Below are positions 558 through 63,391 of a stretch of 64,000 bases of DNA, piece by piece. This stretch comes from Candidatus Campbellbacteria bacterium (GTDB taxonomy: Bacteria > Patescibacteriota > Minisyncoccia > Phycocordibacterales > EsbW-18), in assembly GCA_045863475.1 (NCBI GenBank), contig BTUR01000001.1:184978-248977 (forward strand). Reading direction: 5' to 3'. Position 1 is the stretch's first letter, and every line of letters begins with the position of its first letter. Position numbers and translations under genes: made by a program. The notes under the pieces were generated by a model, which saw only the letters and a list, made by a program, of their open reading frames with translations, was not told the DNA's origin and ran no database searches.

Positions 558-902
558 TTATTTCTTAGCTGCATCTGACGCTGCCGCCTTGGCTGCGTGT
601 GCTGCTGCAATTTCTGCCTCTTTCTTGGCGGTGTCGAGCGCCTTTTGCATCTGACCTCCGTGCTTGCGGAACGTCTTGCTCGGAGAAAACTCGCCGAGGC
701 GGTGTCCCACCATCTCTTCAGTTACGAACACGTCGATAAACGTCTTGCCGTTATGCACCGCAAAGGTGTAGCCGACCATTTCAGGGGTGATAACTGAGGC
801 ACGAGCCCACGTGCGGATAGCCGGTCCTCCCGGCTTCTGCTTGCCCACCTTCGCCATGAGTTTGACGTTGAGATATGGTCCTTTTTTGAGCGATCGTGTC
901 AT
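558..902 (-). CDS. rpsS: 30S ribosomal protein S19, with an Ala/Lys-rich C-terminal extension
   Basis: [12 protein letters not shown]...[18 protein letters not shown] is the canonical S19 core. Confidence 0.9.
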
Positions 903-928
903 GTGACTGATTTTTAACGAGTATAGCG

Positions 929-1060
929 AGTATAAAAATCGTTACCCCGCCCTCTCTAGTTCCCTGCTATAACTGGCATAAACCTAATACCCTATCGCTC
1001 TCTACTTTGGCACGAAACAGGGATATCGTGCTTGAGAGGGCGGGGTTCTCGAAAAATACA
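929..1060. repeat. MITE-like element, copy 1, with terminal inverted repeats CCCCGCCCTCT ... AGAGGGCGGGG
   Basis: CCCCGCCCTCT lies at 945-955 and its reverse complement AGAGGGCGGGG at 1035-1045. Both ends are flanked by TAT(A/T)4TCG-like extended inverted repeats. The same architecture occurs at 3022-3150, 20470-20600 and 22030-22125. Confidence 0.6.
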
Positions 1061-1226
1061 GTCGTCAGAAACTCCTTATTTTTCGGAAAAAAATCGGCCC
1101 CTTGGCCTCGGGGCATAATACCAGAAGCGTCTTACGTGGTCAAATATATAGCTGACACAGAGGCTTCGCCTCTCAGTGCACTGAGAGGCGAAGCCTCCTG
1201 AAATCCACACATAATGCACAGGGGTA

Positions 1227-1535
1227 TTGCAAAGCATGAAGAAAGTATGTAGAATCAGCTGTGGAGTGAATGTTTTCCACCCGGACGCATCCTTCCGGCA
1301 AACACGCCGGCAGGTTCTCGCTGAGGGAGAAGTATCGATGGAAGACGCAGATGTCGGCAGAAAGGTCTGTTGCGTCAAGCGCGACGGCGACAAGGTCCAG
1401 GGCACGGTCTGCAAGTGCACGAGGAGAGGCATCGGCGTGAAGACGCCGCACCGCTTCTACCCGTCCGAGCAGTTCTCGGAGTTCTTCCGGGCCCTCGAGT
1501 ACCTCACGCCGCGACTGGCGCCGGCCGAGCTGTAA
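1227..1535 (+). CDS. hypothetical Cys-containing small protein (ORFan) inserted between rplB and rpsS
   Basis: 102-aa ORF on the opposite strand to the ribosomal genes; high GC; followed by a terminator hairpin. The frame is uncertain because alternative overlapping ORFs exist. Confidence 0.3.
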   Translation: MQSMKKVCRISCGVNVFHPDASFRQTRRQVLAEGEVSMEDADVGRKVCCVKRDGDKVQGTVCKCTRRGIGVKTPHRFYPSEQFSEFFRALEYLTPRLAPAEL

Positions 1536-1593
1536 CCAGGCAGCACCAATGGAACGGGTTTGAGCCCTCGCACGGCTCGAATCCACCAAGAAA

Positions 1594-1663
1594 GGCAGGT
1601 CCCTCGCAAGACCTGCCTTTTTTCTTTACAAAAAACCGCCCCGGCAGAGAGCCGGGGCGGTTT
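1594..1663. terminator. pair of convergent rho-independent terminators
   Basis: GGCAGGTCCCTCGCAAGACCTGCC followed by a T-tract on the + strand, and CCGCCCCGGCAGAGAGCCGGGGCGG with an A-tract (a T-tract on the - strand) immediately downstream of rplB. Confidence 0.6.
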
Positions 1664-1674
1664 AGCATTATCTG

Positions 1675-2523
1675 TTAGACCTTCCGCTTCTTGCCAACGC
1701 GACGGCGTTCGACAATGAGGAAGTTTGAATATTTCTTCGGACGGCGCGTCTTGTGTCCCTTGCCGACGTTCTTTCCGTGGCGGGTGCGAGCTCTGCGGTG
1801 ACCGCGTCCCTGGCGTCCTTCACCACCTCCGTGCGGGTGGTCAACCGGGTTCATCGCGGTGCCGCGGACCTTCGGCTTCTTTCCGAGCCAGCGCTTGCGG
1901 CCGGCCTTGCCGAGGTTCACGAGCTTGTTCTCAGGATTGGAAACTTCGCCGATGGAACCCCATGCTTTCTCAGAAACCTTTCGGATTTCCGTTGACGGCA
2001 TCTTCAGGAGCGTGTAGCCGCCGTCATGCGCGACCACTTCCGCGTAGTTGCCTGCTGAGCGGGCGATTTTTGCGCCGCCGTCGGGCTTCACTTCAATGTT
2101 GTAGACGAATGTACCGACAGGAATCTTTGCGAGCGGGAGCCGGTTGCCGGGAATGAGCGGTGCTTTTTCTGATGCGAGGAACGTGCCACCGACTTTCATG
2201 GACTGCGGTGCAAGGATGTAGCGGCGCGAGCCGTCTGCAAACACGAGCAGCGCGATGAAGCCGGTGCGGTTCGGGTCGTACTCAACTGATTCAACGCGCG
2301 CCGGAATATCTTTCTTCGTGTACGCAAAATCAATGTCTCGGAAACGGCGCTTGTGTCCGCCGCCGCGAGAGAGCGTCGTGAGGCGGCCGAATGAGTTGCG
2401 GCCCGTTGCCCGCTTAAATCCGCCGGTGAGCGGCTTGTGCGGGCGGCTGTGCGTAATGTGCTTCCGGAATTCAATGCCGGTCATGCCGCGACGTCCTTTG
2501 GTTGTAGGTTTGTATTTCTTCAT
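1675..2523 (-). CDS. rplB: 50S ribosomal protein L2
   Basis: MKKYKPTTKGRRGMTG... with GGGHKRR and HPHGGGEG motifs. The start is taken at the internal Met so that it does not overlap rplW. Confidence 0.9.
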   Translation of the reverse strand: MKKYKPTTKGRRGMTGIEFRKHITHSRPHKPLTGGFKRATGRNSFGRLTTLSRGGGHKRRFRDIDFAYTKKDIPARVESVEYDPNRTGFIALLVFADGSRRYILAPQSMKVGGTFLASEKAPLIPGNRLPLAKIPVGTFVYNIEVKPDGGAKIARSAGNYAEVVAHDGGYTLLKMPSTEIRKVSEKAWGSIGEVSNPENKLVNLGKAGRKRWLGKKPKVRGTAMNPVDHPHGGGEGRQGRGHRRARTRHGKNVGKGHKTRRPKKYSNFLIVERRRVGKKRKV

Positions 2524-2533
2524 GGCTGTAGTG

Positions 2534-2992
2534 TTACACGAGCTCGATGGTGTCTCCCTTCTTGAGCTGTACGTATGCCTTCTTGCCACCGCCGGTTTCA
2601 ATCGGCGTGCCGCGGCGCGACGTCTTCGTTTTCTTCGGAACGTTCACAACGCGAACACGAACCGGTGTGACACCGTAGACGTCTTTGACTGCCGATGCGA
2701 TGAGCTTCTTGTTTGCCGATGTCGCAACATCAAATGCGTAGACGTTGTGCGCCGAGAGCAGCGTTCCCTTCTCGGTAACGCGCGGGTTGCGCAGGATGTT
2801 CGGGTTCACGCGTCCGGCGGCAACCGTCTGCTTGAGGCTCTTCTTCTCCTCTGCGCGTGACGCACCCTTCGCAACCGGAAGCTCCTTTGCCTCTTCCTCT
2901 TTCACCTCCTGGACTTCCTTTGTCGCACGCTTCGCAAACAGCGAGGTCTTCGCTTTTGCACCGCTTGAGTTGTCTTTTTTACGAAACAGCAT
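2534..2992 (-). CDS. rplW: 50S ribosomal protein L23, with a roughly 60-aa Lys/Ala/Glu-rich N-terminal extension
   Basis: L23 core ILRNPRVTEKGTLLSAHNVYAFDV...KKAYVQLKKGDTIE; lies between L4 and L2. Confidence 0.8.
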   Translation of the reverse strand: MLFRKKDNSSGAKAKTSLFAKRATKEVQEVKEEEAKELPVAKGASRAEEKKSLKQTVAAGRVNPNILRNPRVTEKGTLLSAHNVYAFDVATSANKKLIASAVKDVYGVTPVRVRVVNVPKKTKTSRRGTPIETGGGKKAYVQLKKGDTIELV

Positions 2993-3021
2993 ATGTCTGA
3001 TTTTATTAGCGAGCGTTAGCG

Positions 3022-3150
3022 AGATTTATAAAATCGGCACCCCGCCCTCTACCCACAAAGACACCTGGAAGTTCAGTCTGAATATTCATGTTTTTTTGTA
3101 TCTGTGATTTTGTCATGGTGTTAGAGGGCGGGGTCTTCGAAAATATACTC
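3022..3150. repeat. MITE-like CCCCGCCCTCT terminal-inverted-repeat element, copy 2
   Basis: CCCCGCCCTCT at 3040-3050 and AGAGGGCGGGG at 3123-3133; flanks match copy 1. Confidence 0.6.
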
Positions 3151-3167
3151 ACTTCGTTCGTTATTTT

Positions 3168-3947
3168 CTAAGAGTTCAATTTTGATTCAAACGCTTTCAG
3201 TGACGCATCCGGGTCGACAATCACAACGTACGTGTATGAGAGCGCGGAAAGCGCATTGAGGTTGCGCGCCTCTTCAACTCCGGTTGTCGCGATATTGCGG
3301 AAGCTTTTCTTTACTGCCTCGCTGTTTGAAGGCATCACGAACAGCGCAGCGTTGCCTGATTTGCGCGCAAGCTTCTCAAAGCCTGAAATCTTTGCGAGAT
3401 TTGTGAGCGCAGTTTTCGCCTCGGCGGTTTTCGGAGCGTTCATGGGAAGCGTATCAACAAACAGCACCTCGCCGTCTGAAAGTTTCTTTGAAAGCACTGA
3501 GAACAACGCCTTCGCGCGCATCTTCTTCGGGATGCGAACACCGTACTCCTTCGAAGCAATCGGGCCGTGCGTTACACCACCGCCGCGCCATATCGGCGAG
3601 CGAATAGAACCGTGTCGGGCGCGTCCCGTTCCCTTCTGGCGCCACGGCTTCTTACCACCACCACGAACTTCGCCGCGTCCTTTCGTGTGTGCACGGCCGC
3701 GTCCTGCGCGTGCATTGTTTTGCATGCCGGATACCACCTGGTGCACCAAGTCCGCATTCCAAGAAACACCGAAGATGCCTGCCGGGAGTGTTACCGTACC
3801 TGACTCTTTTCCTGCGACTGTGAAGATGGGGGCTGAGAGACCGTCCGCTGATTTCTTCACCGCGACCTTCTTTTCAGCCTTCGGTGCAGCCGCCTTCTTC
3901 GGCGCTGCCTTCTTCACTGTTTTCTTTTGTGCGACTTTCTTTTCCAT
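3168..3947 (-). CDS. rplD: 50S ribosomal protein L4, with a Lys/Ala-rich N-terminus
   Basis: GRGRAHTKGRGEVRGGGKKPWRQKGTGRARHGSIRSPIWRGGGVTHGP is an L4 signature. The start is taken at MEKKVAQKK, just after the rplC stop. Confidence 0.85.
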   Translation of the reverse strand: MEKKVAQKKTVKKAAPKKAAAPKAEKKVAVKKSADGLSAPIFTVAGKESGTVTLPAGIFGVSWNADLVHQVVSGMQNNARAGRGRAHTKGRGEVRGGGKKPWRQKGTGRARHGSIRSPIWRGGGVTHGPIASKEYGVRIPKKMRAKALFSVLSKKLSDGEVLFVDTLPMNAPKTAEAKTALTNLAKISGFEKLARKSGNAALFVMPSNSEAVKKSFRNIATTGVEEARNLNALSALSYTYVVIVDPDASLKAFESKLNS

Positions 3948-4749: not shown

Positions 4750-4971
4750 TCAGAAGGAGTCGAGCGCCTTGAGCCACCCCTTGGGAAGCTCGTTGGGGTT
4801 GGACATCTGCGCACCGCAGTTCGGGCAGAAGCGCGGGTTCCGGTTGCCGTCTTGGTGACGAATCTGTCCCCCGCAGGAGCTGCACTTGAGGATCATTCCC
4901 TGGTACGGATGATAGTAGTCGGCGACCCACTCCGCGGTCTTGACCTGCGCCTGTTCACCAGCCATGTCCAT
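4750..4971 (-). CDS. small zinc-ribbon protein (CxxC...CxxC)
   Basis: The 73-aa product contains KCSSCGG...RFCPNCGAQM; the gene sits in an insertion island between rplC and rpsJ and has high GC. Confidence 0.45.
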   Translation of the reverse strand: MDMAGEQAQVKTAEWVADYYHPYQGMILKCSSCGGQIRHQDGNRNPRFCPNCGAQMSNPNELPKGWLKALDSF

Positions 4972-5122
4972 CTCCTTTCGGGAATCTACCCGCGACTATA
5001 CGCTGGCGGCAATACGAAGTCAAAGCGAGGCGTCCCTTAGGGACGATTGATGGCACTATTGCCACCGTGCACACATAAGAGTAAGGTGGCGAAAGAGTTG
5101 TTCCAACAAAAGGAGAACGGAC

Positions 5123-11934: not shown

Positions 11935-12066
11935 CTCCGAGAGTCTTTTTGCGCGACAGGCTCTCTGCGTGCGGGAAATAAGCTCGTTCCGTACGCAGGG
12001 AATACAAAATACGAGAGTCTTTTTGTGCGACAGGCTCTCTGCGCACGGGAAATAAGCTCGTTGCGC
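11935..12066. repeat. tandem direct repeat (2 copies of about 60 nt) followed by a perfect hairpin
   Basis: GAGTCTTTTTG(C/T)GCGACAGGCTCTCTGCG(T/C)(G/A)CGGGAAATAAGCTCGTT occurs twice; CCCCGCAGTGACCAAAGTCACTGCGGGG lies at 12068-12096. Confidence 0.5.
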
Positions 12067-12686: not shown

Positions 12687-12878
12687 CCCGATAGTGGCAG
12701 GTCGCGGTCGTTGTAAACTTCCGAAACCAGCAAATTAAGTTTTAACAAAAATACAGCTCACCCCACGGAATCCGGAAAGCGACCGCGGTCACTATCGGGA
12801 TCCATGTCTAGATTATAGACGCATTTCTTCATAAAACAAAAACGCCCCCGTGGGGGTGTTTTTGTAATTGCTTGGATA

Positions 12879-15077
12879 TCAGGACAGTGCGGCTATTTGT
12901 TTTTGAAGCTCTTCGATGAGTTGCATGATGAGCGCGATGAGCGCCGTTTTAATCTCTTCAATCATGCGCGCCCGGTCTTCCGGCGAAAGCGCACTGATAT
13001 CGGTCACGTCCAAAGGACCTGTCACTTCCTCCGCTCGACGGCTACTACCACCTCCTCCACCTCCACCACCCCCGTCATCCTCCTCTTCTTCCTCTTCATC
13101 GGGTGTGAAATTAACGATAAGCGCTTGAGAACCGTAGTCGGATTGGTCGGTGTACCAACCATTCTCGTCATACGCACGCAGATAGATTGTGTACGAACCT
13201 TCTGCAAGTCCGGAAAGTGAGCATATGAACGCTTCGTTTGTTTCGTTGTATGCACCATCACCCGCATCACACGCGGTCCATGTGCCGTCGGGGTTGCTGC
13301 TGAATGCATATTCAACCCCCGCAATATCTGAAGCTGAGTTGGATGCATCCGCAGTTCCCGTCAAATCGTAGGAGGTGATGTCAGTTTCTGCTGAAGCGAC
13401 TGTTGGAGCAACTGTGTGCGGGAAGTTAAACACGATAAATGTTGAGCCCGCGTCCGTTCTGCCGCTAACATCAGCTGCGTATGCAACCATGGCTATGTCG
13501 GGACGACCGTCGTTGTTGAGATCACCTGCGGTCATGCCTTGTGCAAAGAATGAGCCGGAGATGCCCTCCCAGCGCGCCGCGTATGCGTCCGCATCGGTGA
13601 TGGTGATGTCATTGCCGGTTCCTGTGGTGCTTGCAAACGAATCATTGTCGATGTAGTACACCGCGCCGAGTGATTCGTTTGTCTCACCCTCAGGAAATCG
13701 TCCGGAGATAAAGAAGTCGTCAACGCCGTCGCGATCCATGTCGGCAACTGTCAGACTCGTGCCGAGGTGCTGCGTGAGGGACGCGCCAATGAAGCGGAGG
13801 TTGTAGTTCGTCGTGGGTGATGATGTGCCAAGCTCCACCACGTTGTCCGTGCCAACGTAATCATCAATGAGGTCATTGTTAATGAGGTACGTCCAGCCCG
13901 TACCGCGAACAGTGTTGCCGCCGTGGTCGGCGCCATTGGCGCCGACCAGAATATCCGTTGCACCATCATCGTCAAAATCACCCGCAGCGATGCTGCCGCC
14001 GAATACCGCGTGGCGCGAAATCATATCGTAACGAGTCGAAACAGTCGACGACGCATTAAGATCAACAATATTGCCGACACCAGCGTATGCGTCGAGTAGT
14101 TCATTGCGAATGAAATACACAGAACCACCATCGGCTTCAACATTGTCGCGGCCGTATGCAGGAAGCATGAGATCGAGTGTGTCGTTGCCGTCAAAATCTT
14201 CAATGATAAGCGGCCCGTTACCGAAAAGTTCCGTTGATTCACTGCCATCGAGCCGGATGTTGAACAGTGTTGTGGATGCGAGATCCACCGTGTTGCCGGT
14301 GCCAACATAGTCATCCAAGAGTGAGTCGTAGAAAATATAAATCGAACCGGAGTACGTGCGACCGTTGTTGTCCGCATCTCGTGCACCAATGAGCAAATCA
14401 TTGCCACCAACGCCGTCGAGATCGGCAACTGCCAGACCCTGCGTAAACGCGAGCATGTCGTTTGCGGCGGCACCTTCAAACCGGATGGTATAGCTTGAGG
14501 ATGCCGACATGTCCACGGTATTACCGGTACCAGTGAGGCCTGAAAAAATGCTGCTGTCGATAAGATAGAGCGCTCCTGCTGACGAGCGTCCGTTGGGATC
14601 AACACCGTATCCGGCAACAAGAAGATCCGGTGCGTCGTCGCCGTCGACGTCCGCAACTTTTGCGCCGCTGATTGAGAAGTAGTCGTCTGCCGCAGCACCG
14701 TCAAAACGAATGTTGTAGGAGGTTGATGCGAAAAGATCGATGGTGTTACCTGTCCCTGTGTAATCGTCCAGAAGTGAATCAAAAAGCACGTGGAGTGAGC
14801 CGGAATTCGACCGACCATTATTGTCGTCCCACCACGACTGGAGCAATATGTCGTTGCGTCCATTACCATCAAGGTCGGCAATGACCGGGTCGCTATAGCC
14901 GGTCCAGTCACCTTCTGTTGCACCGTCAATACGAATGTTCCATGCGGTTGCATCAGAGGTGATGTGCGTTGCTGCGGCAAATGCGGAGAGCGGTGCGACG
15001 AGTGTTGAGGCAGTAAAGACGACACCGGTAATGAGCGCGATCGGTTTGCAGATCACGGAATATTTTTTTAGCATATG
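12879..15077 (-). CDS. large secreted FG-GAP/VCBS-repeat protein with an acidic Gly-rich C-terminal region
   Basis: N-terminal signal/TM; at least seven FG-GAP-like repeats (DLDGNGRNDILL, DVDGDDAPDLLVAGYG, DLDGVGGNDLLIGA, DFDDDGATDILVGANG, DMDRDGVDDFFISG, DLNNDGRPDIAMVAY); EEEEEEDDGGGGGGGGG then an amphipathic C-terminal helix. Confidence 0.7.
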   Translation of the reverse strand, partial: HMLKKYSVICKPIALITGVVFTASTLVAPLSAFAAATHITSDATAWNIRIDGATEGDWTGYSDPVIADLDGNGRNDILLQSWWDDNNGRSNSGSLHVLFDSLLDDYTGTGNTIDLFASTSYNIRFDGAAADDYFSISGAKVADVDGDDAPDLLVAGYGVDPNGRSSAGALYLIDSSIFSGLTGTGNTVDMSASSSYTIRFEGAAANDMLAFTQGLAVADLDGVGGNDLLIGARDADNNGRTYSGSIYIFYDSLLDDYVGTGNTVDLASTTLFNIRLDGSESTELFGNGPLIIEDFDGNDTLDLMLPAYGRDNVEADGGSVYFIRNELLDAYAGVGNIVDLNASSTVSTRYDMISRHAVFGGSIAAGDFDDDGATDILVGANGADHGGNTVRGTGWTYLINNDLIDDYVGTDNVVELGTSSPTTNYNLRFIGASLTQHLGTSLTVADMDRDGVDDFFISGRFPEGETNESLGAVYYIDNDSFASTTGTGNDITITDADAYAARWEGISGSFFAQGMTAGDLNNDGRPDIAMVAYAADVSGRTDAGSTFIVFNFPHTVAPTVASAETDITSYDLTGTADASNSASDIAGVEYAFSSNPDGTWTACDAGDGAYNETNEAFICSLSGLAEGSYTIYLRAYDENGWYTDQSDYGSQALIVNFTPDEEEEEEDDGGGGGGGGGSSRRAEEVTGPLDVTDISALSPEDRARMIEEIKTALIALIMQLIEELQKQIAALS

Positions 15078-20245: not shown

Positions 20246-20469
20246 ATATAAATGTATTAGTGAATAGTGAGAAGAGGCGACGTGCCTTGTCCCCCAATAG
20301 TACGTTCTCTGATACGCGGGAACAATAAATCGTGTTGATAACAACGGCACACGCACGACATTTGACACCACCGAGTTCCACGTATATACTCACCTCATTA
20401 ATACTGTGCTGATTGGGTGCTGCGCCAGAAACGGACGCGGCTCTTTTAATTAAAAACAAGGAGTGAAGC

Positions 20470-20600
20470 GACTATGTTTTTATTAACCCCGCCCTCTGTG
20501 CTCTCAGGACATGCCCTAGAGAGAAGGGTGCCGAGAAAGAAAACATCGCGACAACCACACAATTAAAAACGTAGAGGGCGGGGTGAGATTTATAAAACTC
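20470..20600. repeat. MITE-like CCCCGCCCTCT terminal-inverted-repeat element, copy 3
   Basis: CCCCGCCCTCT at 20487-20497 and AGAGGGCGGGG at 20573-20583, flanked by GATTTATAAAACTCG; immediately upstream of nusA. Confidence 0.6.
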
Positions 20601-20624
20601 GCTTCGCTCATTAAATAAATCATC

Positions 20625-21908: not shown

Positions 21909-22029
21909 GGGCAATCCGGCGAGATAAAATCTAGATAAAGAAAAAATAAAGTTTTTCTAAAGTTTTTCACCACCTTTATAAAGTTCTCACCTGTTGCGTG
22001 AAACGTCCAAAAATCACCGAGTGAAACGA

Positions 22030-22125
22030 TGATGATTTTTGAGACCCCCGCCCTCTGTGCGGGCAACAGCGCAAGAAAAACCAAAGAAAATGTGCAAGGA
22101 GGGCGGGGCGATGATTTTGAAAGCT
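22030..22125. repeat. MITE-like CCCCGCCCTCT terminal-inverted-repeat element, copy 4
   Basis: CCCCGCCCTCT at 22046-22056 and GGAGGGCGGGG at 22098-22108, bracketed by GATGATTTTTGA and GATGATTTTGA direct repeats (possible target-site duplication). Confidence 0.55.
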
Positions 22126-22153
22126 CGCGCCGCTCGCTAACAAAACCAATCGT

Positions 22154-43262: not shown

Positions 43263-43328
43263 GTAGTTTTTTCATCCACTAACTTTTTTGTCGCAACATT
43301 TTTTATCCGCTATGCTGTACCTATGAGT

Positions 43329-43446
43329 CCCGTTAGAAGCCACGGTCGTAACAAACGGGAATCGAAAACTTTGATGAAATACTATTACGCAAAAGTAATC
43401 ACACAGGTTTACTGGCGGTCGTTGACCGCGACCTGCTTCTAACGGG
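43329..43446 (+). promoter_or_regulatory. conserved cis-regulatory element, copy A; ends exactly at an ATG
   Basis: CCCGTTAGAAGCCACGGTCG...core TTGATGAAATACTATTACGCAAAAGTAATCACACAGG...CGACCGCGACCTGCTTCTAACGGG|ATG. The 20-bp termini are inverted repeats. Copy B lies at 59760-59878. Confidence 0.55.
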
Positions 43447-59759: not shown

Positions 59760-59878
59760 CCCGTTTAGAAGCCGCGGTCGCTACTCTCAGAAATCAACAA
59801 CCATGATAAAACGTTATTACACAAACATAATTTCGCAGGTTCAGAAGCGGACAGTGACCGCGACCTGCTTCTAACGGG
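59760..59878 (+). promoter_or_regulatory. conserved cis-regulatory element, copy B; ends exactly at an ATG
   Basis: CCCGTTTAGAAGCCGCGGTCGC...core ATGATAAAACGTTATTACACAAACATAATTTCGCAGG...GTGACCGCGACCTGCTTCTAACGGG|ATG. Its 27-nt 3' end is identical to copy A. Confidence 0.55.
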
Positions 59879-60292
59879 ATGAAATTTGAAGTACCGCAGT
59901 TTATCGACGTCGAAGACAAGGTGTTCGGACCGTTCACCTTTAAGCAGTTCGTGTACCTCGCCGGAGGAGCGGGTCTTTCAGTTGTCATCTGGCTTTTTGT
60001 GCCGCGCTTCATCGGCATTTTTCTCATTGCCGCGGTTCTGGGGCTCGCCGTTGCGCTCGCATTCTACAAGGTAAATGAGAAACCGTTCGTGAATTTCCTG
60101 GAATCCATGCTGCGCTTCTTCGTTTCAAAAAAACTCTACATCTGGAAGAAGGAGGCTCGAAAAGTCGAACACAAAACGGCGGCGGAGGCACAGGTAGAGG
60201 GCGTCGTCGTGCCGCGCCTGTCTGACAGCAAGCTTCGTGACCTGGCCTGGAGCCTTGATGTGCACGATTCACTGTACGACGAACAAAAGTAG
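59879..60292 (+). CDS. PrgI/VirB3-like small membrane protein (type IV secretion)
   Basis: MKFEVPQFIDVEDKVFGPFTFKQFVYLAGGAGLSVVIWLF has the VPxxxxxxDKxxGxxTxxQxxYL N-terminus and two TM helices typical of Gram-positive VirB3-like proteins. Confidence 0.45.
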   Translation: MKFEVPQFIDVEDKVFGPFTFKQFVYLAGGAGLSVVIWLFVPRFIGIFLIAAVLGLAVALAFYKVNEKPFVNFLESMLRFFVSKKLYIWKKEARKVEHKTAAEAQVEGVVVPRLSDSKLRDLAWSLDVHDSLYDEQK

Positions 60293-60309
60293 GGAACAGG
60301 GAACGGTCA

Positions 60310-60714
60310 TCAGGGGACAGGAGGAAAGGACTTGCGGCAATACCTAATGATGCCGTTAAGGAGTTTGAGGGTTTTTATCACCCTTTCACAAAGCAGGAAA
60401 AAAGCATCGTCTTGTAAATACCCGACGTCACGGGCCAGGAGAAGCTGGTTTTGCACCTCAACCAAAGAACCTCGTGCAACAAGGTAGAATCGGAGTTTCT
60501 CTTTATGAGACACCCTTCCGTGTGCTTCGGCCACATTAGAGGTCACTGAAACTGCCGCCCGCCGTATTTGGTTTGTTAATCCGAATATTTCATCCCCGGG
60601 AAATTCTTTTGTGCAAAGGTAAATTGCCTTTGCAAGGCCGTGTCCCTCCTTCCAAACCTGTAAATCGGTAAAATCTAGAGCCTTACTCATACCGCCACGG
60701 TACACAAACTGCAT
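60310..60714 (-). CDS. four-helix-bundle protein (the family found in 23S rRNA intervening sequences), bracketed by inverted repeats
   Basis: LDFTDLQVWKEGHGLAKAIYLCTKEFPGDEIFGLTNQIRRAAVSVTSNVAEAHGR...LRFYLVARGSLVEVQNQLLLARDVGYL. Flanked by GGGAACAGGGAACGGTCAT (60292-60310) and its imperfect inverse GTTCACCGTTCCCGGTTCCCAGTTCCC (60737-60763). Confidence 0.7.
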   Translation of the reverse strand: MQFVYRGGMSKALDFTDLQVWKEGHGLAKAIYLCTKEFPGDEIFGLTNQIRRAAVSVTSNVAEAHGRVSHKEKLRFYLVARGSLVEVQNQLLLARDVGYLQDDAFFLLCERVIKTLKLLNGIIRYCRKSFPPVP

Positions 60715-60766
60715 AAAGCCCTCCTAAACCGTTCTGTTCACCGTTCCCGGTTCCCAGTTCCCTAAT

Positions 60767-61444
60767 ATGCGTTACAATGTAACGCATATGGCGCAACAAA
60801 AAGCGCAGAGCGCGCAGGTATTCGTTCCCATCAAAGAGATCCGCAGCGGTGTCGTCATCCTCAAGGACGGTTCCATGCGATCCGTGCTCCTCTGTAGCTC
60901 GCTGAACTTCGCTCTGAAGTCCGAAGATGAGCAGTCGGCAATCATCATGCAGTTTCAGAACCTCCTCAACTCGGTGGAGTTTCCCATACAGATATTCATT
61001 CAGTCACGCGAGCTGGACATCCGTCCGTACATCGCGCTTTTAGAAAACCAGATAAAAGTGCAGGAGATTAATCTCATCAAAATGCAGACGCGCGAGTATA
61101 TCGAGTTCATCAAAGGGTTCATGGAGAACGTCAATATCATGTCCAAGAGTTTCTTCGTTGTTGTCCCGTATTCTCCGGCGGTTATCTCTGCAGCGAAGGG
61201 AGGTGTGAAGGGCGCACTTGGTGGCATCCTCTCGGGCAAAAAAGAAAACCCTGAGCAGAAAATCATCGCGTTTGAGGAACACCGCAGTCAGCTCGAACAA
61301 CGCATCGCGGTTGTATCACAGAATCTTGCACGCACCGGCATTCGCGCAGTCCAGCTGCAGACGGAGGAACTCGTTGAACTGTACTACAAACTGTTCAACC
61401 CGGGCGACTCCGAAAAACCGATTGCACTCTCCGCAGTTAAATAA
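60767..61444 (+). CDS. VirB4-like protein, N-terminal domain ORF
   Basis: QVFVPIKEIRSGVVILKDGSMRSVL matches the N-terminus of Gram-positive VirB4/TrsE/PrgJ ATPases. It ends at TAA, 3 nt before the ATG of the ATPase ORF. Confidence 0.5.
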   Translation: MRYNVTHMAQQKAQSAQVFVPIKEIRSGVVILKDGSMRSVLLCSSLNFALKSEDEQSAIIMQFQNLLNSVEFPIQIFIQSRELDIRPYIALLENQIKVQEINLIKMQTREYIEFIKGFMENVNIMSKSFFVVVPYSPAVISAAKGGVKGALGGILSGKKENPEQKIIAFEEHRSQLEQRIAVVSQNLARTGIRAVQLQTEELVELYYKLFNPGDSEKPIALSAVK

Positions 61445-61447
61445 TCT

Positions 61448-63391
61448 ATGGGAATTTTTGACTTCATCACAGGAAAAAAGAACAACGACGCACCGCAAAT
61501 CTCCCCGGTGTTGCCAAAAGACATCTACGAAGCCGGTGTGCTTGAGTTGCAAGACATCATTGCGCCGTCGGCACTCAAAGTAACACCGCGCGCACTGAAC
61601 CTTGGTGACAAAGTTGTTCGCACGTTTTTCGCCATTTCGTATCCTCGCTTCCTGCCTGACAACTGGCTCTCGCCGATTATCAACCTCGACAAAGTATTTG
61701 ATATCTCAATTTCCATCATTCCGGTAGACACAGCGCAGGTACTCAAAGAATTTCGAAAACGCGTTGCCGAAGTACAAAGTCAGATTCATATTCGTGAAGA
61801 AAAGGGGCTCGTGCGCGATCCGATGCTTGATGCCGCATACCAAAACCTTGAAAATCTCCGCGACCAGCTCCAGCAGGCAACTGAGAAGCTTTTTGACGTC
61901 GGTCTCTACATATCAATCTACGCCGATAAAGAAGAGGACTTGGATAAACTTGAGTCTGAAATCCGCTCACTCCTGGAAAGCCGCCTTATTTACCTCAAAC
62001 CCGCACTCTTCCAACAAGAGCAAGGGTTCCGCAGTGTTCTGCCGATACAGAGCGACGAGCTCGGCGTGCACAGCAAGCTCAACACCTCGCCGCTTTCCTC
62101 ATTCTTCCCGTTTGTGTCATTTGACCTCACGTCCGACAAGGGAATCCTCTACGGCATCAACCGGCACAACGCGGGGCTCATCCTCTTTGACCGTTTCTCC
62201 ATGCCGAACTACAACTCGGTGACCTTCGCTACCTCCGGTGCCGGAAAATCATACGCAACGAAGCTCGAGATTCTGCGCACACTCATGTTTGATACCGACG
62301 TTATTGTGATTGACCCGGAGCGTGAATACGAGCACATGAGTGAAGCGATGGGCGGGCGTTACTTCAACATCTCACTGACAAGCGAACACCACATCAATCC
62401 GTTTGATTTGCCGCCCGTGCGCGAAGACGAAACACCCGCAAACGTTTTGCGCTCACAAATCGTCACCTTGGTGGGACTCTTCCGCATCATGTTCGGCGGA
62501 CTCACCCCTGAAGAAGACGCCATCATTGACCGCGCCATCACCGAGACGTACGCACTCAAAGACATCACCGGCGAGCGTGATTTCTCCGGAACCGAACCGC
62601 CGCTGTTGTCTGACTTTGAACTGGTCCTCGCCGGCATGGAAGGAGGGGAGTCTCTGGTGCAACGACTCACAAAGTACACAAAGGGTACCTGGTCCGGATT
62701 CATCAACATGCCGACGAACGTCGACATCAATAAGAAGTTTATTGTCTTTTCCGTGCGCGACATGGAAGACGAACTCAAGCCGGTTGCGATGTACCTCATC
62801 ACACACTACATCTGGGGCGCGGTACGACGCACGCTGAAAAAACGCCTGCTCGTTGTTGATGAGGCATGGTGGATGATGAAAGAAGAAGACACCGCGTCAC
62901 TTCTCTTCGGATTGGCCAAGCGCGGACGCAAATACTACCTCGGCATCGCAACCATCACCCAAGACGTCGGCGACTTCTTGCGTTCTCCCTACGGACTGCC
63001 GATTATCACAAACTCATCCATCCAGATGCTCTTGAAGCAGTCGCCGTCGGCTATCGATTTGGTGCAACAGACATTCAACCTCACCGACGAGGAGAAGTAT
63101 CTGCTTCTGGAATCAGAACAAGGAGAGGGCATCTTCTTTGCGGGACTCAAGCATGTTGCCATCAAAGTCATCTCGTCATATACGGAAAACCAAATCATCA
63201 CCTCAGATCCATCAGAACTGCTTTCCATTAAAAAATCGCGTGAACAGCTCCGTTCCGCAAAAAGTGACGATGCGGAGCCTCTCCAGGAGAAAATCTATTC
63301 CAACAGAAGGGTTCCGGACGGCGATACCACAGCACCCGTTGCACCCGGAGCAGGAATCGCCGGCAACGTGGAGCTTAGGAACGTAGAATAA
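61448..63391 (+). CDS. virB4: VirB4/TrbE-like type IV secretion ATPase (C-terminal ATPase portion)
   Basis: Walker A TFATSGAGKSYATK, Walker B LLVVDEAWWMM, and the conserved RKY..G.....QD motif (KRGRKYYLGIATITQDVGDF). Confidence 0.85.
   Translation: MGIFDFITGKKNNDAPQISPVLPKDIYEAGVLELQDIIAPSALKVTPRALNLGDKVVRTFFAISYPRFLPDNWLSPIINLDKVFDISISIIPVDTAQVLKEFRKRVAEVQSQIHIREEKGLVRDPMLDAAYQNLENLRDQLQQATEKLFDVGLYISIYADKEEDLDKLESEIRSLLESRLIYLKPALFQQEQGFRSVLPIQSDELGVHSKLNTSPLSSFFPFVSFDLTSDKGILYGINRHNAGLILFDRFSMPNYNSVTFATSGAGKSYATKLEILRTLMFDTDVIVIDPEREYEHMSEAMGGRYFNISLTSEHHINPFDLPPVREDETPANVLRSQIVTLVGLFRIMFGGLTPEEDAIIDRAITETYALKDITGERDFSGTEPPLLSDFELVLAGMEGGESLVQRLTKYTKGTWSGFINMPTNVDINKKFIVFSVRDMEDELKPVAMYLITHYIWGAVRRTLKKRLLVVDEAWWMMKEEDTASLLFGLAKRGRKYYLGIATITQDVGDFLRSPYGLPIITNSSIQMLLKQSPSAIDLVQQTFNLTDEEKYLLLESEQGEGIFFAGLKHVAIKVISSYTENQIITSDPSELLSIKKSREQLRSAKSDDAEPLQEKIYSNRRVPDGDTTAPVAPGAGIAGNVELRNVE

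Follow-up and report, generated by a model that had tools for sequence, protein, structure and literature searches.

Start-codon-proximal hairpin composites of a Candidatus Campbellbacteria genome are probably copies of a mobile, non-coding element family of the Patescibacteria

Among the small palindromic repeats of bacteria, Correia elements form RNA hairpins that RNase III cleaves and that can change the stability of mRNA. Intervening sequences (IVSs) of ribosomal RNA (rRNA) occur sporadically and are thought to have been acquired horizontally (PMC11270868). Here we analyse four GC-clamped palindromic sequences in a 64,000-nt stretch of DNA from Candidatus Campbellbacteria bacterium, a member of the Parcubacteria group; this whole stretch is the window, and its positions are used for numbering. 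It is probable that the four sites are copies of a non-autonomous, non-coding, hairpin-forming insertion element family that is widespread in Patescibacteria (the Candidate Phyla Radiation, CPR) and is co-transcribed into 5' leaders. An earlier note on this DNA had described them as resembling miniature inverted-repeat transposable elements (MITEs) of about 100-130 nt, lying between rplB and rpsS, between rplD and rplW, directly upstream of nusA, and between nusA and ppa. These gene contexts are correct, and all four inverted pairs are present at the places given. The minus-strand genes around copies 1 and 2 encode ribosomal proteins L22, S19, L2, L23, L4 and L3, as judged from translations of open reading frames (ORFs), and the plus-strand genes at copies 3 and 4 encode NusA and inorganic pyrophosphatase, as judged from Pfam matches. 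The lineage is generally without Shine-Dalgarno motifs.

The exact pair CCCCGCCCTC…GAGGGCGGGG occurs four times in the window, with core spans at 945-1045, 3040-3133, 20487-20583 and 22046-22108, and the eight exact arm matches in the window all fall within these inverted pairs, leaving no unpaired exact arm. With up to one mismatch allowed, CCCCGCCCTC has 12 matches in the window against 3.8 expected, a count reached in 0 of 100 shuffles. The 11-nt termini described previously are thus present as arms in all four copies, but the 3' arm of copy 4 reads GGAGGGCGGGG and the eleventh pair is lost. The interiors are mutually unrelated, as had been stated, but their lengths of 79, 72, 75 and 41 nt (copies 1-4) span 41-79 rather than 45-75 nt, and with a GC content of 36-48% (53% for the window) they are only moderately AT-rich. 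Nor are the GC-rich arms the ends of the element: in an alignment of the four copies, each read towards its downstream gene, conservation continues for about 40 nt on the 5' side and about 50 nt on the 3' side, and the whole units, at about 904-1086, 2996-3172, 20448-20624 and 22005-22153, measure 149-183 nt each. Every unit is a composite in the order HP2', GC-clamped core (63-101 nt, with variable interior) and HP2. HP2' has an AU-rich stem and a loop of the form AAGGAG-N6-9-CGACT(A/G), also seen as AAGGAG…CGACTAT, and HP2 has an 8-bp stem, GAUUU(U/A)NN / NN(A/U)AAAUC, with a loop of 14-19 nt bearing CUCGCUUCGCUCG (the CTCGCTTCGCTCG loop). All four composites have the same polarity, and the end of HP2 lies 3-7 nt ahead of the ATG of rpsS, rplW, nusA and ppa. 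Every core forms a considerably better fold than shuffled sequence does. The parts are as follows, z being the score of the core fold against shuffled sequence; the fold z-scores cited for an insertion element family run from -4 to -6.7.

904 to 1086, minus strand: copy 1 composite, 183 nt, between the conserved promoter and short hairpin and the rpsS ATG (902)
1051 to 1084, minus strand: copy 1 HP2', stem GAAAAATA / TATTTTTC, loop aggagtttctgacgactg; the minimum-energy fold is three hairpins
945 to 1045, no strand assigned: copy 1 core, 11-nt arms at 945-955 and 1035-1045, interior 79 nt, z = -3.9
909 to 940, minus strand: copy 1 HP2, stem GATTTTTA / TAAAAATC, loop tactcgctatactcgt; ends 6 nt from the ATG
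2996 to 3172, minus strand: copy 2 composite, a clean 177-nt insertion from the rplD stop to the rplW ATG
3139 to 3168, minus strand: copy 2 HP2', stem GAAAATA / TATTTTC
3040 to 3133, no strand assigned: copy 2 core, interior 72 nt, z = -6.0
2999 to 3035, minus strand: copy 2 HP2, stem GATTTTAT / ATAAAATC, loop aaatctcgctaacgctcgcta
20448 to 20624, plus strand: copy 3 composite, preceded by the conserved nusA leader hairpin and followed by the nusA ATG (20625)
20448 to 20484, plus strand: copy 3 HP2', stem AATTAAAAAC / GTTTTTATT, loop aaggagtgaagcgactat
20487 to 20583, no strand assigned: copy 3 core, interior 75 nt, z = -5.5
20587 to 20621, plus strand: copy 3 HP2, stem GATTTAT / ATAAATC, loop aaaactcgcttcgctcattaa; 11 bp complementary to the HP2' loop
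22005 to 22153, plus strand: copy 4 composite, preceded by the conserved nusA-ppa spacer (…ctgttgcgtgaaac) and followed by the ppa ATG (22154)
22008 to 22041, plus strand: copy 4 HP2', stem CAAAAATCA / TGATTTTTG; its 3' arm is the left 'direct repeat' of the earlier note
22046 to 22108, no strand assigned: copy 4 core, short form, interior 41 nt, z = -1.9
22113 to 22146, plus strand: copy 4 HP2, stem GATTTTG / CAAAAC; its 5' arm is the right 'direct repeat' of the earlier note

The evidence that these composites are gained and lost comes from close relatives, in which all four sites are empty, the presence/absence pattern looked for in a MITE; the proposed mobility, for which empty sites were sought in related strains, is supported in that every copy behaves as an insertion. 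Among the comparison loci fetched from genomes and metagenomes (L-numbers), the closest strain at copies 1 and 2 is L129, with an identical ribosomal protein L22 and 95-98.5% DNA identity across the S10 operon, and copies 3 and 4 were compared with the relative L120, whose NusA is 95% identical. At the copy 2 site the rplD stop and rplW start are 1 base apart in L129, and the window has an additional 177 nt between flanks that are identical at 60/60 and 57/60 bases. The junction reads gaact-(177 nt)-catatg in the window and gaact-aatatg in L129, with no duplication, and the inserted copy provides rplD with a new TAG stop; the spacer at this site is 1-10 nt in L129, L126 and L128. At the copy 1 site the window and L129 share an identical promoter (TTGACC-17-TATTAT) and an identical short hairpin, beyond which L129 has 47 unrelated nt where the window has the 183-nt composite. 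Both sites are also empty in the more distant L126, L127 and L128. At the copy 3 site the nusA promoter and leader hairpin are kept in 6/6 relatives (L120-L125) and the composite is found in 0/6, the site in L120 being 30 nt; at the copy 4 site the composite is absent from the same six loci, and L120 has 50 unrelated nt. No core was found in these six relatives in up to 21 kb each. Elements of this kind probably also cause assembly breaks, since the contig L130 begins just upstream of copy 1. Two further strain-specific indels separate the window from L129: a 41-nt segment (1150-1191) that makes a perfect 19-bp palindrome (1160-1197) upstream of the rpsS promoter, and a 37-nt segment (122-159) after the rplV stop.

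The four copies belong to one family rather than being coincidental hairpins, since their flanks, orientation and spacing from the ATG agree, and dozens of relatives occur elsewhere in the Patescibacteria. These relatives come from a GTDB scan of one genome per species, all counts from which are among the matches listed: at least 49 elements lie at low-GC loci, including the four of the window, and the remainder are almost all from Patescibacteria (Saccharibacteria and the Parcubacteria-group Nealsonbacteria, Tagabacteria, Niyogibacteria and Taylorbacteria). Their GC content is 34-64%. The invariant part is a GC-rich stem of 11-15 bp, CCCCGCCCTCT(AAGC)…(GCAT)AGAGGGCGGGG, which closes a variable interior and is usually CCCCGCCCTCTAAGC…GCATAGAGGGCGGGG or its reverse complement. 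One A·A or T·T mismatch is conserved at stem position 13, with pairing kept to position 15, and total core length clusters at about 96-103 nt, with a minor class of about 60 nt. Intergenic copies stand 15-50 nt upstream of start codons, mostly those of highly expressed housekeeping genes, with examples including frr, rpsE, rplK, rplT, rpsR, rpsL, rpsP, rpoA, rpoC, mreB and uvrB. Two scans of viral contigs for phage carriage gave 0 and 1 matches. The same GTDB scan also gave chance matches in high-GC genomes and an unrelated repeat family of about 85-100 nt, gactctccCCCCGCCCTCCCTGTTAGGGAGGGAGC…GCTCCCTCCCTAACAGGGAGGGCGGGGggagagtc, which fits the same search pattern and occurs in several copies per metagenome-assembled genome (MAG) in rumen and gut Bacteroidales (Prevotellaceae/Bacteroidaceae), at loci that include L022, L025, L029, L037, L038, L040, L047 and L049.

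Paralogues in other genomes are 78-100% identical, with interiors in common. L046 and L104 lie at separate loci of a single MAG and match at 100% over 96 nt; the paralogues L001/L103 and L080/L117 are about 80% identical, with L112 related to L001 and L103; and in L034 one copy is nested within another. The family also occurs within structural RNAs, where the core is found at tips of peripheral helices. Among RNase P RNAs, the core occupies P12 in L060 (135 bits) and both P3 and P12 in L072 (90 bits); L098 has it at P3, and L044 (98 bits) contains it within the RNA. Among 23S rRNAs, L064 has it at the tip of helix 25 (at model positions 583/584), and L086 has it in domain III. These structural-RNA copies fold as rod-like hairpins of much greater stability than shuffled sequence (z = -3.3 to -7.4). 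The evidence for copying and for gain and loss is as such direct, consisting of the empty sites, the identical paralogues, the nested copy and the differing helices occupied in RNase P RNA and rRNA. We also observe that the Rfam consensus has CCCC/GGGG ends at core sites, both in RNase P P12 (CCgCccgcccc…ggggcggG) and at the 23S helix 25 tip (…gcccc…gggguc…), a coincidence that could mean either that insertion proceeded by microhomology or that the core originated in helix tips of this sort. The sites concerned are the following.

L060, 1935 to 2032: core at a site with CCCC/GGGG consensus ends
L072, 4636 to 4694: core at a site with CCCC/GGGG consensus ends
L064, 3673 to 3772: core at a site with CCCC/GGGG consensus ends

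That the copies in the window are carried into RNA is suggested by their position relative to two sigma-70-type promoters.

1115 to 1143, minus strand: promoter TTGACC-17-TATTAT, upstream of copy 1, kept in relatives without the element
20362 to 20390, plus strand: promoter TTGACA-17-TATACT, 11/12 matches, upstream of copy 3, kept in relatives

Copies 1 and 3 therefore lie within the rpsS and nusA 5' leaders, and with copy 2 inside an operon and copy 4 between nusA and ppa, transcription of all four is very probable. Judged from this arrangement, RNA stem-loops are plausible, and in a lineage without Shine-Dalgarno motifs the composite would exchange a short unstructured native leader for a structured one. 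Within the nusA leader itself (20362-20447), the near-consensus promoter is followed by a hairpin (gctgcgcc…gacgcggc) and T-run, kept in 6/6 relatives, which may be an attenuator for NusA autoregulation. Beside copy 1, a small ORF with no Pfam match (1227-1535, plus strand) stands divergently between rplB and rpsS and splits the S10 operon. The same ORF is found in L129, and L126, L127 and L128 have a small unannotated ORF of different sequence there, which in L128 is on the same strand as the ribosomal genes. A 73-aa ORF upstream of rplC (4750-4971, minus strand) has two CxxC pairs and is zinc-ribbon-like, with no Pfam match.

It is likely that the composite enters, or replaces, a short spacer ahead of a start codon. 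An enzyme acting in trans would recognise the invariant stem and move the element, probably as folded single-stranded DNA; insertion without duplication points away from DDE transposases and toward enzymes that act on folded single-stranded DNA or are site-specific, and candidate types would be tyrosine recombinases, HUH, IS110 and IS607-like enzymes. Once transcribed, the element would form a stable GC-clamped stem-loop that may be neutral at the helix tips of structural RNAs, and that in mRNA leaders would probably be a processing or stabilising structure beside a start codon without a Shine-Dalgarno motif. By analogy with Correia elements and rRNA IVSs, it may reasonably be supposed that the structure serves stabilisation or processing at the 5' end. 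A role of the composite as Shine-Dalgarno substitute was rejected, such motifs being generally absent from the lineage. No conserved ORF was found in the composites, and frames of possible upstream ORFs differ among copies; a small ORF spanning the element was accordingly rejected, with start codons and frames not conserved between copies. Capture of the interiors from elsewhere was likewise rejected, as the interiors have no match elsewhere in the window or in any fetched locus.

The MITE-like description given earlier holds in that the elements are short, non-coding and variably present, but fails in that they have no target-site duplication (TSD). The interiors of the four copies are unlike one another, and no cognate transposase was found among the window ORFs. 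As to terminal inverted repeats (TIRs), the insert reaches about 40-50 nt beyond the 11-nt arms, and its outer ends are A-rich on the same strand and form no simple inverted repeat. The GATGATTTT(T)GA direct repeat that had been taken as resembling a TSD around copy 4 does exist (22031-22042 and 22110-22120) but lies inside the insert: GATGATTTTGA forms the core-proximal arms of HP2' and HP2 and is consequently not a TSD.

Several observations weigh against an insertion element family as the explanation. The interiors of the four copies have no mutual similarity and the flanks are only about 65% alike, so that insertions which are recent must have come from different donors and are not recent copies of each other. 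Three of the four composites are not plain insertions but substitute for 30-50 nt of native leader up to the ATG. No further copy was found in an additional 10 kb beyond the four per 64 kb, and as a mobilising gene the 20 window ORFs compared with Pfam include no transposase, only a XerC/D-like recombinase. No strand-specific G·U signal for selection of structure at the RNA level was found, the strand comparison being uninformative, with G·U pairs (28) about as frequent as A·C pairs (25). The core is invariant across phyla, with interiors that vary in sequence but not in length, and the 3' end of the composite always abuts an ATG; this invariance and abutment are explained by selection for a host function at least as well as by pure selfishness.

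A host function of this kind is the first alternative, and one we consider somewhat unlikely: the composite may be a cis-regulatory RNA module of the host, a structured 5' leader bound by a conserved Patescibacteria factor (an RNase or RNA-binding protein) that would control processing, stability or translation of highly expressed mRNAs without Shine-Dalgarno motifs, perhaps through kissing or alternative pairing of the HP2' and HP2 loops, with mobility secondary and the cassette spread by recombination. The persistence of an invariant core around diverging interiors in size classes of about 60 and 98 nt would be expected of such a module, as would neighbours that are translation and transcription genes. 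HP2 provides further evidence in its favour, its covariation being counted for an insertion element family as well. Stem positions of HP2 that are not anchored covary in a set of 24 copies drawn from the window and from genomes and metagenomes (position 7 being UA in 8, AU in 7, CG in 4, GC in 4 and mismatched in one), and the observed pairing was reached in 0/5000 shuffles. HP2 is a real, selected hairpin kept by compensatory changes; it also has a conserved loop motif, and it ends 3-9 nt ahead of an ATG in 17/24 copies. Thermodynamic folding predicts three separate hairpins for copy 1; for copies 2 and 3 it predicts a single long rod that includes pairing of the HP2' loop with the HP2 loop (11 bp in copy 3). 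These predictions make two competing folds possible, and both the loop complementarity and the alternative folds would suit a regulatory module of the kind envisaged. Inspection of the conserved stem revealed no K-turn or bulge-helix-bulge motif. A promoter within HP2, with its -35 in the 5' arm and -10 in the 3' arm and a leaderless mRNA, was also considered and rejected, because the spacing from the -10-like arm to the ATG varies over 3-7 nt, because the arms covary, which is not required of a promoter, and because canonical promoters are already present upstream.

The HP2'-X-HP2 frame also recurs around another central hairpin, TCCAGCAC…GTGCTGGA; such frames lie upstream of tig in L121 and L125, which are Campbellbacteria relatives, and upstream of rplF in the Niyogibacteria genome L083. 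This persistence of the frame again favours a regulatory module. At the tig site, L124 (about 12010-12035) has an apparent 24-nt deletion scar, and the window and L120 are empty.

L121, 13088 to 13201: frame with the TCCAGCAC…GTGCTGGA hairpin
L125, about 13386 to 13503: frame with the TCCAGCAC…GTGCTGGA hairpin
L083, 4051 to 4200: frame with the TCCAGCAC…GTGCTGGA hairpin

The TCCAGCAC…GTGCTGGA hairpin is also part of a multi-hairpin array in the Patescibacteria MAG locus L046, which runs from core to ATG, is closed by GCTCAATG/CATTGAG and occurs twice in the locus (120-260 and 1720-1860).

What counts against a regulatory module is that the same essential genes are without the element in close relatives, that the core's inner orientation shows no coupling to the direction of the gene (about 12 against 7-9), and that none of the covarying HP2 stems in the 24 copies contains a G·U pair. 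In rRNA and RNase P RNA no HP2 accompanies the core, and the identical paralogues and nested copy imply copying rather than convergence.

The absence of G·U pairs is also relevant to a second alternative, which we regard as improbable, that the palindrome acts only as DNA and has no RNA role, for example as a tyrosine-recombinase hairpin site like attC or the attP of CTX phage, a pair of DNA-uptake sequences, or a signal for the nucleoid or for replication. The 11-nt arms are perfectly symmetric with paired positions exclusively Watson-Crick, the layout is attC-like (arms, position-13 mismatch, GC pair block and variable terminal structure), a Xer-like recombinase is encoded in the window, and insertion leaves no TSD. 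However, the GTTRRRY/RYYYAAC boxes and any cassette or integrase context are missing, the arms never occur singly and have a density of 4 per 64 kb, unlike uptake sequences, and a DNA site would not be expected to occur in RNase P RNA and rRNA or to hold a fixed position at start codons.

Intrinsic, possibly bidirectional, terminators or attenuators that share a GC clamp are a highly improbable explanation. In its favour, the GC-rich stems follow A-rich sequence, precede T-rich sequence and have intergenic positions, but the loops of 41-79 nt and a T-run that begins 4-6 nt after the stem do not fit; a terminator scan does not call the four cores, yet calls canonical terminators nearby (1638-1652, after rplB). 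The copies inside rRNA and RNase P RNA, and that of copy 2 between genes that are translationally coupled in relatives, are further evidence to the contrary. Unrelated hairpins with a chance GC clamp, as the many random pattern matches in high-GC genomes might suggest, have a negligible likelihood given the shuffled counts, the conserved flanks, polarity and ATG distance, and the dozens of copies in AT-rich Patescibacteria genomes; we consider both the terminator and the chance explanations excluded.

Beyond an insertion element family as such, a broader and unlikely possibility is that the core is a Patescibacteria-specific module of RNA and single-stranded DNA with a dedicated recognition factor, a hairpin-dependent spread without duplication, a role as 'punctuation' of mRNA ends, and use as a portable cassette. 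If so, the punctuation signal would be cleaved or bound and would define the 5' ends of mRNAs without Shine-Dalgarno motifs, copies at the helix tips of RNase P RNA and 23S rRNA would be either tolerated or cut out, and the HP2'-X-HP2 frame with its interchangeable cores (CCCCGCCCTCT or TCCAGCAC) would be a portable expression cassette peculiar to these reduced genomes. The Patescibacteria make up a large share of bacterial diversity. Their genomes are tiny, and there is hardly any work on how they regulate genes or process RNA. The element would offer a handle on the function of leaders without Shine-Dalgarno motifs, on the origin of the many rRNA insertions of the group and on an enzyme that would move hairpin DNA without target duplication, and individual elements are usable as strain-level markers. 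Since copies precede essential translation genes and also lie within RNase P RNA and within 23S rRNA, the element is directly relevant to the expression of these core genes and RNAs.

A second palindromic element of about 125 nt, with TIR CCCGTT(T)AGAAGCC(A/G)CGGTCG…GACCGCGACCTGCTTCTAACGGG, was observed in the window at 43328-43446 and 59761-59878 and in L123 at about 4890-5017, with a diverged short copy near 12687-12801 of the window. It sits on start codons and is bordered by 5-bp direct repeats that include the ATG (ATGAG/ATGAG and ATGAA/ATGAA, and ATGTA/ATGTA at tig in the relative L123), and it would seem to be a true MITE with a TSD, for which start codons are the target.

The composites themselves appear to be an undescribed mobile-element family. 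A scan of the window against Rfam 15 at gathering thresholds returned tRNAs only, and a permissive scan of 850-3250 gave chance-level matches; searchable literature on these sequence strings and on Patescibacteria repeats or MITEs contained nothing relevant, and a survey of CPR rRNA insertions does not describe this hairpin (PMC11270868). By analogy, the element acts like the small palindromic repeats of other bacteria, namely Correia, ERIC, Rickettsia palindromic elements (RPEs), REPIN and rRNA IVSs. Those of the Correia, ERIC and IRU type are likewise non-coding palindromic repeats of about 100-150 bp near genes that are co-transcribed, form long RNA hairpins and differ in presence between strains. 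However, Correia elements have 26-bp TIRs, a TA duplication and similarity over the whole element within a genus, and in contrast to both Correia and ERIC the elements described here are without a TSD, have unrelated interiors around a core conserved across the superphylum, and are three-hairpin composites whose 3' end abuts the start codon. RPEs are also small palindromic insertions that are tolerated in functional genes, including RNA genes, by folding out of the way, but they lie in frame in protein genes, whereas the present elements were found only in leaders, spacers and helix tips of structural RNAs. The 23S IVSs of helices 25 and 45 are resembled by the L064 copy, a rod of about 100 nt exactly at the helix 25 tip; the copies in the window differ in lying in mRNA leaders, as do most of the family, which is also found in RNase P RNA. 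A gene of the 23S_rRNA_IVP family (PF05635, E = 6e-33) is present at 60310-60714 on the minus strand of the window, within a type IV secretion or conjugation-like cluster (59879-63391) of PrgI-like, TraC-like and TraG/VirB4-like genes. REP sequences and REPINs (BIME, RAYT) share two inverted conserved palindromic units around a less conserved spacer, an extragenic position, hairpin formation and a movement thought to involve single-stranded DNA and to leave no TSD, but REPs are species-specific and number hundreds per genome, in contrast to a cross-phylum core at 4 per 64 kb, and no RAYT gene was seen in a Pfam scan of the window ORFs. The sites attC and CTX-phage attP have in common with the core its conserved inverted arms, a conserved unpaired position, terminal structure of variable form and length, and integration without duplication. 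Unlike attC, the arms here are CCCCGCCCTCT/AGAGGGCGGGG with no R''/R' boxes (RYYYAAC / GTTRRRY) and no cassette or IntI context, the neighbours are essential housekeeping genes and the target sites are many rather than one. What is new with respect to all of these families is the superphylum-wide core, the interchangeable cores in a three-hairpin frame, the abutment of the start codon and the occurrence in both RNase P RNA and rRNA.

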